Below are positions 680 through 53,773 of a stretch of DNA of 64,000 nucleotides, one piece after another. A program made the translations under genes and the position numbers. This stretch comes from Enterobacteria phage vB_EcoM_IME540. Below the pieces are notes generated by a model. It saw nothing but the letters and a program-made list of their open reading frames with translations, searched no databases and was not told the DNA's origin. The first letter of the stretch is position 1. Every line of letters starts with the position of its first letter. The DNA lies in sequence record MT150133.1; one strand, written 5' to 3'.

Positions 680-716
680 TAGGTCTATAGTATCACGCCT
701 ACAGGAGATGTAAACC
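680..716 (-). promoter_or_regulatory. T4-type early promoter element (GTTTAC-N17-TACTAT)
   Basis: rc reads GTTTACATCTCCTGTAGGCGTGATACTATAGACCTATCAAC; member of a repeated family; sits upstream of ORF 345..662. Confidence 0.6.
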
Positions 717-724
717 CTTAAAAA

Positions 725-746
725 CAAAAAAGGAGCCGAAGCTCCT
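725..746 (-). terminator. intrinsic terminator hairpin (UUCG tetraloop) downstream of gene 41
   Basis: minus strand AAGGAGC-UUCG-GCTCCTT followed by T-run. Confidence 0.5.
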
Positions 747-2185
747 TAAAATTTGATAGATGCTGCTAAATCGTCCAAATCACTTCTATTAACACGCGTC
801 TGTCGATTGACCTCGGCCTGGCGATTCATCTCACCTGTAGCCTCACGAACAGTGTTCACTGGGCCTGGGTTGGAATCATCTTCAACTTCGTACCAACGTT
901 GATTTCCTTTCTTAACGCCAATCTTAAATTTGTTGTAGTAGCTCTTATCGCCATAACGAGATTTAAGCTGCTTAACCATCTGCATACCCATCTGAGCGAA
1001 CTCTTCTGTCTCGACCACACCCAACATGAAGTCTGCAGTATGTGCAATACCAAAGGATTCAGCAATATCGGCCATATCGATTTCGGCTGCAACGTTCGCA
1101 CCACGAGTAGTCTGGGCTGCAGTCCACAACAGTAATTTCTTCTCTACTGCAAGTCCACGTAGTTCTTCAGCAACCATCTTAATCAATCCGTAACTGTTTT
1201 CAGAGAAAACTTTCGTACGAGACGATGCACAGATAGCCAAGTAGTCAACGATAACGACCTGTGGGACAAAGTTTTGTTTGAGCTTGTATTCGTTTAATAA
1301 TGCACGGAATGTATCGGCATTAGCACCGCCAGTAGGATACTGTTTAATCTTTAAACGACCCAAGGTAGCAGTTGAACGCCATTTATCCATCTTAGCTTTA
1401 TATTCAGGCCAAGAGACGTGACCATCGTCAATATCGTCTAGTGATACATCCAGAAGGTTGGCATCGATACGCTTAGCACATACTTCCTCTGCCATCTCCA
1501 TGGAGATATAAAGAACATCGTAACCCGATTGAAGATAATCAGCAGCCAATGAACACAGACCCAGAGACTTACCTACGTTTGTTCCTGCCAACAATACGTT
1601 TTCAGTACCAAACTCAGCACCACCCTTGGTAATCTTATTCAGAATATTAAGACGGAATGGAACCTTACGTGCTTTATCAGAATAACTTTTGAATCGTTCT
1701 TCATAGTCATCCATCCAGTCATGACCTAATTCAGAATCGAAACAAATCGATAATGCATCACGCATGATATCTGGAATAGCACCAATACCTGGAAGTTTTC
1801 TATTTTGTTGCTCAACTGGAAGGTCGGCATTAGTTTGGATTTCAATGATTTTTGAAGTTGCATTATACATCGCTGCTTTCTGAACGTATTTCTCCGTCTC
1901 TTTAACCAACCATTCTTGGTCTTCAGGCCCGGAGTTCAGCGAACTTAAAAGCTCTTTAGCGCCTTGATGTTCAACTTCTGAAAGCGTACTGTTATCTAAT
2001 GCAATGCTCAATGCGTTCTTAGAAGGCACTGCATTATATTCATTGACGTGTTTTTTAATTTCTTTGAAAAGGGTCTTTGCAGGACCCTGGTCAAAATAAG
2101 AATCATTCATATAAGGCCAGACCTTAGTGAAATAATCACTATTGCCTAGCAGTTGAGCCAAAATAGTTTCTACCACTTCCACCAC
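746..2185 (-). CDS. 41: replicative DNA helicase gp41
   Basis: 479 aa; near-collinear with T4 gp41 (MVE...FxKVWPYM..., Walker A GTNVGKS, C-terminal LDxLAxxxKF). Confidence 0.95.
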   Translation of the reverse strand: MVEVVETILAQLLGNSDYFTKVWPYMNDSYFDQGPAKTLFKEIKKHVNEYNAVPSKNALSIALDNSTLSEVEHQGAKELLSSLNSGPEDQEWLVKETEKYVQKAAMYNATSKIIEIQTNADLPVEQQNRKLPGIGAIPDIMRDALSICFDSELGHDWMDDYEERFKSYSDKARKVPFRLNILNKITKGGAEFGTENVLLAGTNVGKSLGLCSLAADYLQSGYDVLYISMEMAEEVCAKRIDANLLDVSLDDIDDGHVSWPEYKAKMDKWRSTATLGRLKIKQYPTGGANADTFRALLNEYKLKQNFVPQVVIVDYLAICASSRTKVFSENSYGLIKMVAEELRGLAVEKKLLLWTAAQTTRGANVAAEIDMADIAESFGIAHTADFMLGVVETEEFAQMGMQMVKQLKSRYGDKSYYNKFKIGVKKGNQRWYEVEDDSNPGPVNTVREATGEMNRQAEVNRQTRVNRSDLDDLAASIKF

Positions 2186-2499
2186 CTCTTAGATTTAATT
2201 TTATCCAGTTCTTCTTGTATTTGCATTGTAACACATTTTTCTACATGAAGCGCTAGCTCTTCTTTTCGGTCTTCGGAAGGTGTTCCGAAATCAACCGACA
2301 CTTTTCCATCTTTCTCAATAACAATATTCATCACATAAACGATGTGAGCAGTGCCATCGGGTAAAGTAAGCATAATTTCCTGCTTAACCGATCCCATTGA
2401 CTTACGGATTATATCTAATGATTTCTCATAATAACGAGGGTCACTAGGACCCTCTTCGGTATCTTTAACGAAATTATCTAAATCAGATAAATCAGTCAT
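2170..2499 (-). CDS. 40: gp40-like head vertex assembly protein
   Basis: 109 aa ORF at the syntenic position between 41 and uvsX; size matches T4 gp40. Confidence 0.55.
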   Translation of the reverse strand: MTDLSDLDNFVKDTEEGPSDPRYYEKSLDIIRKSMGSVKQEIMLTLPDGTAHIVYVMNIVIEKDGKVSVDFGTPSEDRKEELALHVEKCVTMQIQEELDKIKSKRWWKW

Positions 2500-3664
2500 C
2501 TAAATCCATCTCTTCCAAATCGTTTTCGATATCAGCGGCGCTTTGGGCATTACCACCTAATTTAACAGCAACGTTCTTAGAGACACGAGAGTTAATAAGG
2601 TCGTTCACTGCATCGTCAACTTCTTTAATAGAATTAATTGCACCGAGCTTATACTTATTCTCGATTGCTTCACGGAACGGGGCATGTTTAAACAGCGGTC
2701 CCCAGAACTCGACACAATCGGTAGCTTTAGCACGCCATGCTTTTTCTTCTTGAACCATTTCGCCTGTGGTTTCGTCAAGGAATGCACGATTATACCAGCC
2801 AGCTTTAGGTTTCACGACAAAGCCAATATCAGTAGCCATTTCAAGCAATCCACTGAATGGGTCGATACCACCTTCGAAGTTAACGGTGATAGGGAACGTT
2901 GATTTCTCTTTAACCGTACGAGATTTCTCAGCCTTCAGTGTGAAGTCATAACCAGTGAGCTCGGTACCATCTTTAACCTGACGTTTAGAGATAAAGAACA
3001 CGGTAGAAGCAGAGTACAGAATACCAGTACCACCACCCATAATCTCTTTAGGATACATTCCACCAATTTCCATAGCCGTGTGGTTGATTGCTACACAAGG
3101 GATATCTTTGATAGTCAGATAAGGTGTTACGATACGGAACAGAGATTTCAGTGACTTAGCACGGGTCATATCACCTACAACTTTCTCGTTCAAAGCATCT
3201 TCGGTTTCTTTCTTAGAAGCAGTGTTACCAATGGAGTCGATAAAGATAATAACCTTTTCGCCACGAGTAATTTCTTCTAACTGGTTGGTCATATCAACTT
3301 TAAGCTGTTCGACTGACTGGATTGGTGTATGAACCACACGTTCCAAATCAACACCCATCGAACGGAAATAAGATTCTGAAGCACCAAACTCAGAGTCATA
3401 GAACAAACAAATTGCGTCTGGATATTTCTTCATATATGCCGCAACCATGGTAAGTCCAAACAACGTTTTAAAGTGTTTAGATGGAGCAGCAAAGATTGTC
3501 AAACCTGATTGTAAGCCTGCATTCAACGCACCGCCTAATGCAATATTCAGCATAGGGATACGAGTAGGAACTTCGTCACGACCATTAAACAATTTAGATT
3601 TGGTCAGGTCGGCGGTCATTTTAGAAGTAGAAGCTTTAATCAAACGGGATTTTAAATCAGACAT
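2492..3664 (-). CDS. uvsX: UvsX recombinase (RecA-like)
   Basis: 390 aa; N-terminus MSDLKSRLIKASTSK and overall sequence match T4 UvsX. Confidence 0.95.
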   Translation of the reverse strand: MSDLKSRLIKASTSKMTADLTKSKLFNGRDEVPTRIPMLNIALGGALNAGLQSGLTIFAAPSKHFKTLFGLTMVAAYMKKYPDAICLFYDSEFGASESYFRSMGVDLERVVHTPIQSVEQLKVDMTNQLEEITRGEKVIIFIDSIGNTASKKETEDALNEKVVGDMTRAKSLKSLFRIVTPYLTIKDIPCVAINHTAMEIGGMYPKEIMGGGTGILYSASTVFFISKRQVKDGTELTGYDFTLKAEKSRTVKEKSTFPITVNFEGGIDPFSGLLEMATDIGFVVKPKAGWYNRAFLDETTGEMVQEEKAWRAKATDCVEFWGPLFKHAPFREAIENKYKLGAINSIKEVDDAVNDLINSRVSKNVAVKLGGNAQSAADIENDLEEMDLDD

Positions 3665-3741
3665 TATATTTTTCCATAGGCATCATTATATTTTACTCAC
3701 GTTTTAAGATAGGGTAATTATATCACTTCACATTTACAGCG

Positions 3742-53176: not shown

Positions 53177-53206
53177 ATAGTACCATCACTAAAGCCCGTT
53201 GTAAAC
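53177..53206 (-). promoter_or_regulatory. early promoter element (GTTTAC-N18-TACTAT)
   Basis: family member: agggctatagtaccatcactaaagcccgttgtaaac. Confidence 0.5.
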
Positions 53207-53208
53207 AA

Positions 53209-53481
53209 TTATTTTAAATAAATTGCATATTTTTTATAACCAGCCGTCTCGTGGCGCAGCCCTTTTTCATTAGCAAAACGTTCAATATTGTTAATTTGAT
53301 TCTGGTCGAGTTCTGAAGTATCAAATACAAAAAAGTTTCGCTTATTGCCTAAAGTTACGTGATTAGTCAAATCGATGTTATAGAGATGATTTATATTATC
53401 AATCATGGTCTTAACAGATTTGTTAATTTTTACTTCTTCATTAAGAATAGATTCAGCGATAAATTCTTGGTATGATTTCAT
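53209..53481 (-). CDS. internal-protein-like capsid-targeted protein (IPI region)
   Basis: N-terminus MKSYQEFIAESI (CTS-like); 90 aa. Confidence 0.6.
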   Translation of the reverse strand: MKSYQEFIAESILNEEVKINKSVKTMIDNINHLYNIDLTNHVTLGNKRNFFVFDTSELDQNQINNIERFANEKGLRHETAGYKKYAIYLK

Positions 53482-53482
53482 T

Positions 53483-53707
53483 TTATTCAGCGCCAGCAGC
53501 TTTCAAAAGTTTTTTAAGATTGGCTATGCCGCCAGCAGAAAACGTGACCTTGCCACCTTTTTCATTGATAGAGCCAGTCAATTTAGCAAGCTTATCACTA
53601 GGGACTTTTTTAAAATCAGCCAGTGTGCCATCAAAGGTTTTTGTAACAATTGGCAGTTCATCTTCATGTCTTTTAGCTTCGGTGATAAATTCTTGATAAG
53701 TTTTCAT
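53483..53707 (-). CDS. internal-protein-like capsid-targeted protein (IPI region)
   Basis: N-terminus MKTYQEFITEAK (CTS-like); 74 aa; own promoter element upstream. Confidence 0.6.
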   Translation of the reverse strand: MKTYQEFITEAKRHEDELPIVTKTFDGTLADFKKVPSDKLAKLTGSINEKGGKVTFSAGGIANLKKLLKAAGAE

Positions 53708-53744
53708 TTTGATTTCCGTTTGGTTAGTTTGTTTTGATAGGTCT

Positions 53745-53773
53745 ATAGTATCATGCCTATAGACCTTGTAAAC
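53745..53773 (-). promoter_or_regulatory. early promoter element with perfect inverted repeat
   Basis: ggtctatagtatcatgcctatagacc plus gtaaac; same variant as at 44743. Confidence 0.5.

Follow-up and report, generated by a model that had tools for sequence, protein, structure and literature searches.

What is the 40-bp element that recurs upstream of minus-strand genes in Enterobacteria phage vB_EcoM_IME540, and what keeps it so well conserved? The stretch of DNA analyzed here (“the window”) comprises 64,000 nucleotides of sequence record MT150133.1, given as one strand 5′ to 3′, and copies of the element lie between positions 680 and 53,773. An earlier note made from the letters of this stretch read the element (GTTTAC-N17-TACTAT or TATAAT) as an early promoter, some copies of which form perfect palindromes, and attributed a conservation greater than sigma-70 recognition needs to an additional binding factor, to recombination hotspots for module exchange or to a homing endonuclease (HE) target. 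Judging from sequence comparison and predicted folding, the elements are very probably T4-type immediate-early promoters of the promoter-early stem-loop (PeSL) kind in a Dhakavirus, with hairpins built into them and an occasional role as recombination repeats.

Compared block by block, the window falls within the Dhakavirus group of JS98, IME08 and QL01 (93-99% identity), and six Dhakavirus relatives (QL01, MX01, C6, KIT01, IME08 and ESCO10) were used for comparison throughout. Gene order is T4-like (41-uvsX-43-45-46-47-55-49-nrdC-tk-vs-regB-denV-e-tRNA-57-1-3-2-4), with plus-strand baseplate genes following the T4-like early region. Copies of the element precede minus-strand orthologues of T4 early genes in the correct orientation, with predicted leaders of 18-37 nt, and serve imm, 55.2, 55.6, nrdC.4, nrdC.8, nrdC.10, regB, denV, e.6, e.8 and trna.4 as well as two internal-protein genes and several small open reading frames (ORFs); pattern and position weight matrix (PWM) scans of the window found no copy among the plus-strand baseplate genes. 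The T4 RefSeq record carries no annotated promoter features, and the syntenic 50 kb of T4 contain 18 such promoters, with start regions of the form ...CTATCAAC... The designation as early promoters in the earlier note is thus borne out by the relationship to T4, by the occurrence of the same elements at the same genes there, and by their orientation before early-gene orthologues.

The pattern GTTTAC-N17-TAYWAT matched eight times in the window, all on the minus strand (0.05 expected), and GTTTAC-N{17,18}-TANWRT matched 17 times, again all on the minus strand (0.57 expected; 17 was reached in no shuffle). These 17 exact matches and two copies with a variant -35 have a -35 and -10 of T4 type 17-18 nt apart, and are tallied as 17 solid and 2 borderline copies, which bears out the count of about 15 in the earlier note; the motif search of window and related phages that it had proposed shows the elements to be shared by T4 and by Dhakavirus. 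Among the solid copies, named here by the position of the -35 G, 15 have a perfect GTTTAC and two a one-base variant (44771, GTGTAC; 41148, ATTTAC); the spacer is 17 nt long in 10 copies and 18 nt in 7. A two-block PWM scan of the window built from the clear copies yielded no additional copy that exceeded the shuffle maximum, and none on the plus strand, and a generic sigma-70 scan of the window was uninformative (62 sites versus 57.5 expected). BLAST with one 60-nt copy hit 501 phage records and matched each Dhakavirus genome at 15-18 places, and an Rfam search of the window returned no family for the 40-bp element. The predicted promoters are listed below with their hairpins, in which the variable part of the spacer invariably supplies the 5′ arm and one of two partners the 3′ arm: the Shine-Dalgarno (SD) region in type A, or the -10/discriminator in type B (dG, predicted folding energy; z, fold z-score of the copy folded from -35 to ATG).

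Copy 715, 660..715 (-): early promoter of a small ORF next to dmd; -35 at 710-715, -10 at 687-692, predicted +1 at ∼680, ATG at 662; intrinsic terminator just upstream, weak CTCC/GGAG pairing of the spacer with the SD.
Copy 8891, 8829..8891 (-): early promoter of imm; 18-nt spacer, -10 TAGTAT, weak stem AGGAA/TTCCT.
Copy 21327, 21256..21327 (-): early promoter of 55.2; 18-nt spacer, -10 TATAAT; type B hairpin over the -10, TTGGGACC/GGTCCTA (core GGGACC/GGTCC), dG -14.2.
Site 21750, 21657..21750 (-): borderline promoter-like site (GTTTAC-N18-TA(C/T)AAT at 21721-21750) in the coding 3′ end of 55.5, before 55.4; without start block; at the same place in T4.
Copy 22448, 22388..22448 (-): early promoter of 55.6; type A hairpin over the SD with perfect 14-nt arms TCTCCTCATGTGTT/AACACATGAGGAGA (stem also given as CTCCTCATGTGT/ACACATGAGGAG), z -7.2.
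Site 24133, 24055..24133 (-): borderline promoter-like site (same pattern, at 24104-24133) in the coding 3′ end of the upstream ORF, which precedes a 49.1-like gene; without start block; at the same place in T4, kept in QL01, absent from the other relatives.
Copy 26691, 26632..26691 (-): early promoter of nrdC.4; 18-nt spacer, -10 TATAAT; SD predicted masked in the read-through context (unpaired probability 0.02).
Copy 29263, 29206..29263 (-): early promoter of nrdC.8; type A hairpin TCTCCAGTAG/CTACTGGAGG over the SD, dG -17.8, z -3.9.
Copy 30663, 30595..30663 (-): early promoter of nrdC.10; stem CTC-TCGTAGA/TCTAC-GAG; intrinsic terminator at 30687-30704, just upstream.
Copy 33743, 33684..33743 (-): early promoter of a 78-aa ORF; intrinsic terminator at 33756-33781, just upstream; CCTC/GAGG pairing with the SD.
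Copy 39113, 39054..39113 (-): early promoter of regB; type A hairpin ATCTCCTGTAG/CTACAGGAGAT over the SD, dG -18.6, z -3.6.
Copy 41148, 41091..41148 (-): early promoter of an internal head protein gene; -35 ATTTAC; no significant stem.
Copy 41610, 41551..41610 (-): early promoter of denV; type A hairpin ATCTCCTGTAG/CTACAGGAGAT, z -5.7; hybrid copy.
Copy 44771, 44703..44771 (-): early promoter copy; -35 GTGTAC; type B perfect palindrome AGGTCTATAG-N8-CTATAGACCT over the -10.
Copy 49259, 49184..49259 (-): early promoter of e.6; type B hairpin GAGGAC/GTCCTC over the -10.
Copy 49716, 49659..49716 (-): early promoter copy; type B hairpin ATGGGCTCAT/ATGAGCCCAT over the -10 (stem also given as GGGCTCAT/ATGAGCCC), dG -20.5, z -5.2.
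Copy 50047, 49981..50047 (-): early promoter of e.8; intrinsic terminator just upstream; CCTCCTT/AAGGAG pairing with the SD.
Copy 53206, 53138..53206 (-): early promoter of trna.4; type B hairpin GGGCT/AGCCC over the -10.
Copy 53773, 53705..53773 (-): early promoter of a gene for an Ip9-like internal head protein; type B hairpin in the form of a perfect palindrome, AGGTCTATAG-N8-CTATAGACCT, z -5.5.

The promoters are built from an A-rich UP region (consensus aaaaAa.t directly before the -35), the -35 GTTTAC, a TGn extension (TG at -15/-14 in 13 of 17 copies), the -10 TAnnnT and a start block, (aga)CCTATCAA. The block CCTATCAA is present in 11 copies, all 11 occurrences of this 8-mer in the window lie in promoters (2.5 expected), and from it +1 is predicted to be the first A in ATCAA, ∼7 nt after the -10. 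Among paralogues, the information content is 9.2 bits in the -35 hexamer, 6.8 bits in the -10 hexamer and 8.8 bits in the 12 nt that follow it. Divergence over 60 orthologue pairs from the six relatives was 1.1% in the -35, 0.3% in the -10, 1.8% in the 12-nt start block and 2.5% in the leader, compared with 7.0% at codon third positions and 10.6% in the 20 nt upstream of the -35. Since the start block diverges far less than codon third positions, this extra block is under selection and not merely young. The claim that conservation exceeds what sigma-70 needs therefore holds, with 8.8 bits in the start region beyond the hexamers, but it describes a known family trait: a review calls T4 early promoters “uber” UP/-35/TGn/-10 promoters and describes further consensus regions in them (Hinton 2010, PMC2988021), and polymerase-recognition parts shared with T4 account for most of the “extra” conservation. 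The statement that copies share spacer and start region is right for the start block (11 copies) and wrong for the 5′ half of the spacer, which is not conserved; only 3 copies lie within 3 mismatches of the 41-nt consensus then given. A subfamily of copies shares its whole leader (ATCAAAACAACAGAGTGAAATGGAGAATAAAATGAAAC and variants, at 44705-44740, 49983-50015, 30597-30631 and 53140-53173), which suggests that promoter and leader were copied as one unit, and T4 has a comparable leader-sharing subfamily (ttttttcacaaaacGTTTAC ... CTATCAACTACTGATACGGATTTGGAGAATAAAATG).

Stem-loops in or at the promoter were found in about 12 of 19 copies, with perfect arms of 10-14 nt and fold z-scores down to -7.2. 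The two perfect palindromes reported earlier are present at 44737-44764 and 53739-53766, and are slightly longer than was then stated: the 10-nt arms AGGTCTATAG/CTATAGACCT (in copies 53773 and 44771 also given as GGTCTATAG/CTATAGACC) are 100% complementary and 8 nt apart. Type B hairpins occur in six copies (53773, 44771, 53206, 49716, 49259 and 21327) and type A in about six to eight, strongly in 41610, 39113, 29263 and 22448 and more weakly in 50047, 30663, 715 and 33743. Because stem registers differ between copies, a column-wise covariation test is inapplicable, and it was replaced by a comparison of cognate and non-cognate duplexes. In the window, spacers paired with their own downstream region at -13.1 kcal/mol versus -8.4 kcal/mol for non-cognate partners (permutation p ≈ 5 × 10−5), and T4 gave the same result (-12.5 versus -7.3, p ≈ 5 × 10−5; reversed-spacer control p = 0.34). 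Copy 49259 carries a compensatory double change in ESCO10 (GAGGAC/GTCCTC to GAGGGC/GCCCTC). T4 has anti-SD stems at regB (TCCTCTTGACTG/CAGTTAAGAGGA) and nrdC.8 (GTTCCTC/GAGGAAC) whose sequences are unlike those of the corresponding stems in this phage, a stem GGCTCAT/ATGAGCC in the orthologue of copy 49716, and a 12-bp hairpin, CTAGAATTGTGA/TCACAATTCTAG, in the equivalent place at ipII. The palindrome arms differ between copies and co-vary, and the centers shift from about -14.5 to -11.5. As the arms differ and the pairing is kept, the palindromes are unlikely to owe their existence to a dimeric protein that recognizes a specific sequence, which tells against the additional binding factor of the earlier note; they are probably selected as hairpins rather than as fixed protein sites. 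A conserved TG(A/G)TA (-15 to -11) is also complementary to TATCA (-1 to +4), giving an invariant 5-bp inner pairing in all copies, with A-U or G-U at one position; it shows no covariation and is thus uninterpretable.

The predicted accessibility of the SD was then compared between RNAs reading through from upstream and RNAs started at the promoter itself. Genes with a promoter copy averaged 0.31 on read-through RNA and 0.60 on their own RNA; shorter RNAs fold less, so part of this gap is trivial, and promoter-less genes served as controls. Defining an SD as switch-like if its unpaired probability is ≤0.05 on read-through RNA and ≥0.35 on its own RNA, 6 of 17 promoter genes in the window qualified versus 1 of 43 promoter-less genes (p = 0.0014), and only this subset differs from controls; in T4 the figures were 6 of 18 and 2 of 33 (p = 0.017). 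At the masked copies (22448, 26691, 29263, 33743, 39113 and 41610) the SD is predicted to be unpaired with a probability of ≤0.03 on read-through RNA and 0.39-0.67 on the own RNA. The 3′ arm in this subset covers the SD and/or the AUG, and the promoter start lies between the arms; since the 5′ arm is upstream of +1, the hairpin can form only on RNAs reading through from an upstream promoter. From these folding models we tentatively propose, as a possibility short of an even chance, that at about one third of early promoters, here and in T4, the spacer doubles as an anti-SD arm and the gene would be translatable only from its own early RNA. Spacer-based SD masking at early promoters was not among the known T4 cases in a 2010 review (PMC3014915).

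Do the copies also recombine? Compared with QL01, the window lacks a 690-bp ipIII cassette that in QL01 has a promoter copy at each end. The denV promoter of the window (copy 41610) is the resulting hybrid: its junction lies in a shared 13 nt, GTTTACATCTCCT, at 41598-41610, where identity shifts from 99.6% to 95.9%, so that the documented crossover fell in the shared -35/spacer segment and not at the hairpin tip. This ipIII cassette is the one case of a clean promoter-to-promoter deletion. Further borders precede a -35 by 0-20 nt, at 30669 (copy 30663, with synteny breakpoints at 30669-30704), 39119/39120 (MX01 and KIT01, 6 nt upstream of the -35 of copy 39113), 50059 (a different upstream module in IME08, joined 12 nt before the -35 of copy 50047) and 53787-53793 (a 199-nt insertion in IME08, 14-20 nt upstream of the -35 of copy 53773). 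Of 67 distinct breakpoints against the six relatives, 13 fell in promoter intervals where 3 were expected under a uniform null (p = 7 × 10−6). Nearly all breakpoints lie at gene junctions, though, and with a gene-junction null the enrichment vanishes: promoter junctions were broken in 8 of 18 cases and other junctions in 32 of 94 (p = 0.28). For the recombination hotspots of the earlier note, then, there is one clean promoter-to-promoter event (41598-41610) and no significant enrichment over other junctions; the PeSL recombination idea is illustrated here, not statistically established, and a general role is drawn from the literature. T4 in any case recombines efficiently at very short homologies (PMC9391042).

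Repeats other than promoters also lie at junctions. Two junction repeats represent the conserved internal-protein leader and not the promoter (41064-41106); the 43-nt repeat there consists of the SD and this leader. The 5′ ends of ip genes, made up of the SD and the capsid-targeting leader ATGAAAACTTATCAAGAATTTATCAC, recur at 41064-41106 and 53705-53730. KIT01 and ESCO10 have an extra ip gene joined at this repeat, so recombination uses the leader as a repeat and not the promoter alone. A further non-promoter repeat of 43 nt (...ggtgtcctcttcttctgaatgttaaggaaataaaATG...), at 47069-47111 (-), is duplicated in IME08, C6 and ESCO10, where it flanks a 164-nt insertion on either side. The most rearranged region among the relatives is 50059-52132.

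We therefore favor the following scheme for the element as a whole. Unmodified host sigma-70 RNA polymerase would read the promoters right after DNA injection, and the hairpin built into many of them, whose complementarity and covariation are described above, would insulate each promoter-plus-gene cassette. RNA started at a copy would lack the 5′ arm and leave the ribosome site free, so a type A gene would be translated only from its own short-lived early transcript, and a type B hairpin may act as an intercistronic attenuator or stabilizer (an attenuator or insulator in the PeSL reading; a 3′-end stabilizer would fit too). Dispersed copies, with 13-40 nt in common, may be occasional substrates for T4-type homologous recombination, by which cassettes would be deleted, inserted or swapped. 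To the gene-junction null must be added several points that weigh against this scheme. The +1 positions are predictions from geometry. Five or six copies (8891, 26691, 41148, 715, 33743) have little or no stem. MAFFT and RNAalifold applied to 12 type A copies recovered only the invariant TGATA/TATCA pairing and not the stems. Mean SD accessibility on read-through RNA was no lower for promoter genes (0.31) than for other genes (0.32). In a comparison meant to separate action at the RNA level from action at the DNA level, sense stems were not clearly more stable than antisense stems in the window (p = 0.32); in T4 the difference favored the sense strand (p = 0.005). Type B hairpins have no U-tract, which makes classical intrinsic termination unlikely for them.

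The alternative that survives best is the original form of the PeSL idea, in which the stem-loops terminate or attenuate upstream transcription, cassettes are isolated transcriptionally and SD masking is incidental. An RB49 PeSL stem-loop lowered lacZ expression about as much as rrnB T1 (PMC2839356), type B hairpins lie wholly upstream of +1, and a canonical terminator (hairpin plus T-run) stands directly upstream of four copies (715, 30663, 33743 and 50047). It stands upstream of only those four; most copies directly follow the preceding stop codon without a terminator. The embedded stems are AT-rich, lack a U-tract and are followed by A-rich rather than U-rich sequence, and a mere terminator would not call for the placement seen in type A, where the 3′ arm falls on the SD in several versions of independent sequence. 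We regard this form as unlikely, if still a serious contender.

A second alternative holds that selection acts on a polymerase-optimized promoter only, the inverted repeats arising incidentally from a self-complementary CTATAG core and from gene conversion or recent duplication among copies. It would explain why both perfect palindromes have the same sequence (CTATAG is its own reverse complement) and fits the near-identity of several paralogous copies; the TGATA/TATCA pairing never varies and says nothing either way. It is improbable in view of the unrelated stems that occupy the same place, both in the window (GGGCTCAT, GAGGAC, GGGACC and CTCCTCATGTGT) and in T4 (TTGACAAGATT, TGATGAGGTA and CTAGAATTGTGA), of the cognate specificity in two genomes with a null reversed-spacer control, and of the compensatory change in an orthologue.

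Selection might instead act on the start block, (AGA)CCTATCAA(C), as an operator for a phage or host factor, for instance one that shuts off early promoters 2-3 min after infection. The information content of the block, its low divergence relative to codon third positions and its presence in T4 are all consistent with this, and the early-promoter shut-off has been described as incompletely understood (PMC3014915). The operator is nonetheless distinctly improbable: no positive evidence points to such a factor, the block could equally serve start-site choice, promoter escape or leader function, and it is missing from the otherwise good copies 21327, 26691, 49259 and 49716.

It is also conceivable, but highly unlikely, that the hairpins act at the DNA level, as cruciforms or single-strand hairpins that either form supercoil-sensitive promoter switches or are broken by gp46/47 or endonuclease VII to initiate recombination. 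Perfect inverted repeats of 10-14 nt, the similar stability of window stems on either strand, the presence of gp46/47 and gp49 among the products encoded in the window and a cassette deletion that ends inside a promoter would all suit such a role. Yet 93 of 1089 predicted pairs are G-T pairs, which are workable only in RNA (e.g., in copy 21327 and T4 regB), T4 favors the sense strand, the arms are short for cruciform extrusion, and both the position of the crossover away from the hairpin tip and the lack of breakpoint enrichment beyond gene junctions speak against break sites.

That the conserved element is a homing endonuclease recognition site, finally, is vanishingly improbable and was rejected on the positions of the HE genes, since the four endonuclease-like ORFs in the window (listed below; insertion borders at 18194/18814, 35384/36120, 37782/38605 and 57838/58456) and the HE insertions of relatives, whose additional HE genes map to window positions 15240 and 55909, have no border at a promoter copy, and 17 sites per 54 kb in non-coding DNA are unlike known homing sites.

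18181-18798 (-): HE-like ORF, HNH-type (PHROG 10820), after gene 47; among relatives only in QL01.
35387-36124 (-): HE-like ORF with NUMOD3, between tk and tk.2; absent from every relative compared.
37856-38590 (-): HE-like ORF of 244 aa between regB and vs.1; PHROG 655 “homing endonuclease” (E = 2.5 × 10−36), no Pfam match; absent from 6 of 6 relatives (822 nt here, 97 nt there).
57833-58468 (+): HE-like ORF, GIY-YIG plus NUMOD3, seg-like, between genes 53 and 5; in none of the relatives compared.

Two tRNA genes, at 50956-51027 and 51740-51810 (-), are the sole Rfam matches in the window. It is also worth noting that product names in the ESCO10 record (OM386655.1) are out of register, with “rIIA” and “MotA”, for example, placed on orthologues of unrelated genes, and that its annotation is not trustworthy.

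For annotation, the analysis provides an early transcription-unit map of a Dhakavirus, with 17 promoters in 54 kb and their predicted starts, and one promoter model serves across genera of Tevenvirinae. It adds the co-variation of the spacer with the -10/start or SD region, replicated in T4, and an SD-masking hypothesis for about one third of the copies; the gene-boundary null tempers the recombination-hotspot claim in this sample. If SD masking is true, it would amount to a general promoter-coupled translational insulation of early cassettes, the early-promoter counterpart of the late switch at e, soc and 49: regB, denV and nrdC.8 would be confined to the first minutes of infection, and GGAG sites on long RNAs would be shielded from RegB. 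A hairpin with the spacer as its 5′ arm makes the PeSL idea of insulated, traveling promoter-plus-gene cassettes testable, and likewise the idea that T4-type phages use the position of a promoter inside a hairpin to choose which transcripts are translated.

How do these promoters compare with known systems? The consensus of T4 early promoters (Pe) is said to go back to Liebig & Ruger 1989. The elements share with T4 Pe the GTTTAC, the 17-18-nt spacing, TGn, TAnnnT, the A-rich UP region, the start consensus and the same early genes, and over 50 nt copy 41610 matches the T4 denV promoter at 98% identity. This phage favors TACTAT, a 17-nt spacer and AGACCTATCAA, whereas the syntenic T4 promoters have an 18-nt spacer in 17 of 18 cases and ACAACTATCAAC as the common start block. 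Predictions of early promoters of the GTTTAC type extend to T4-like phages in general (PMC1524935). PeSLs were described in RB49/phi1, T4/PST and KVP40/nt-1, with JS98 mentioned in passing (Arbiol et al. 2010, PMC2839356; Comeau et al. 2014, PMC4122927). As there, a strong early promoter ahead of small accessory ORFs is combined with a stem-loop, which in PeSLs may sit over the -10, between the two boxes or immediately ahead of the start. PeSLs are also placed at the borders of indels, an association for which breakpoint enrichment here was not significant, and the PeSL idea includes mini-circles excised between neighbouring copies. The PeSLs of RB49/phi1 have G-run/C-run stems with TTGACA-type promoters, whereas the stems here are mostly embedded, AT-rich and individual in sequence; for T4/PST the authors placed the stem-loop just upstream of the promoter, whereas most are embedded here and a subset covers the SD.

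Repeats at the internal-protein (IP) locus of T-even phages were reported by Repoila et al. 1994, and the following comparison extends as far as the description of that work in PMC2839356. In both cases an early promoter, an AT-rich stem-loop and a conserved IP leader flank interchangeable ip genes, and the polymorphism of the locus is reproduced here by the presence or absence of ipIII (41598-41610) and by extra ip genes (41064-41106, 53787-53793); relative to the locus as so described, this promoter type is found here also at 14 non-IP genes across 53 kb. The masked copies resemble, lastly, T4 e, soc, 49 and I-TevI, in which an SD-masking hairpin encloses a late promoter (PMC3014915). In these genes too one arm (5′) precedes the start and the other (3′) covers the SD, with long RNAs predicted to be untranslatable and promoter-proximal RNAs translatable. 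Theirs are late promoters (TATAAATA) under temporal control, whereas here the promoters are of early sigma-70 type and the arm is the promoter's own spacer. The masked copies are thus an analogue of the e/soc/49/I-TevI class and not a member of it, as their internal promoters are of the early sigma-70 type.

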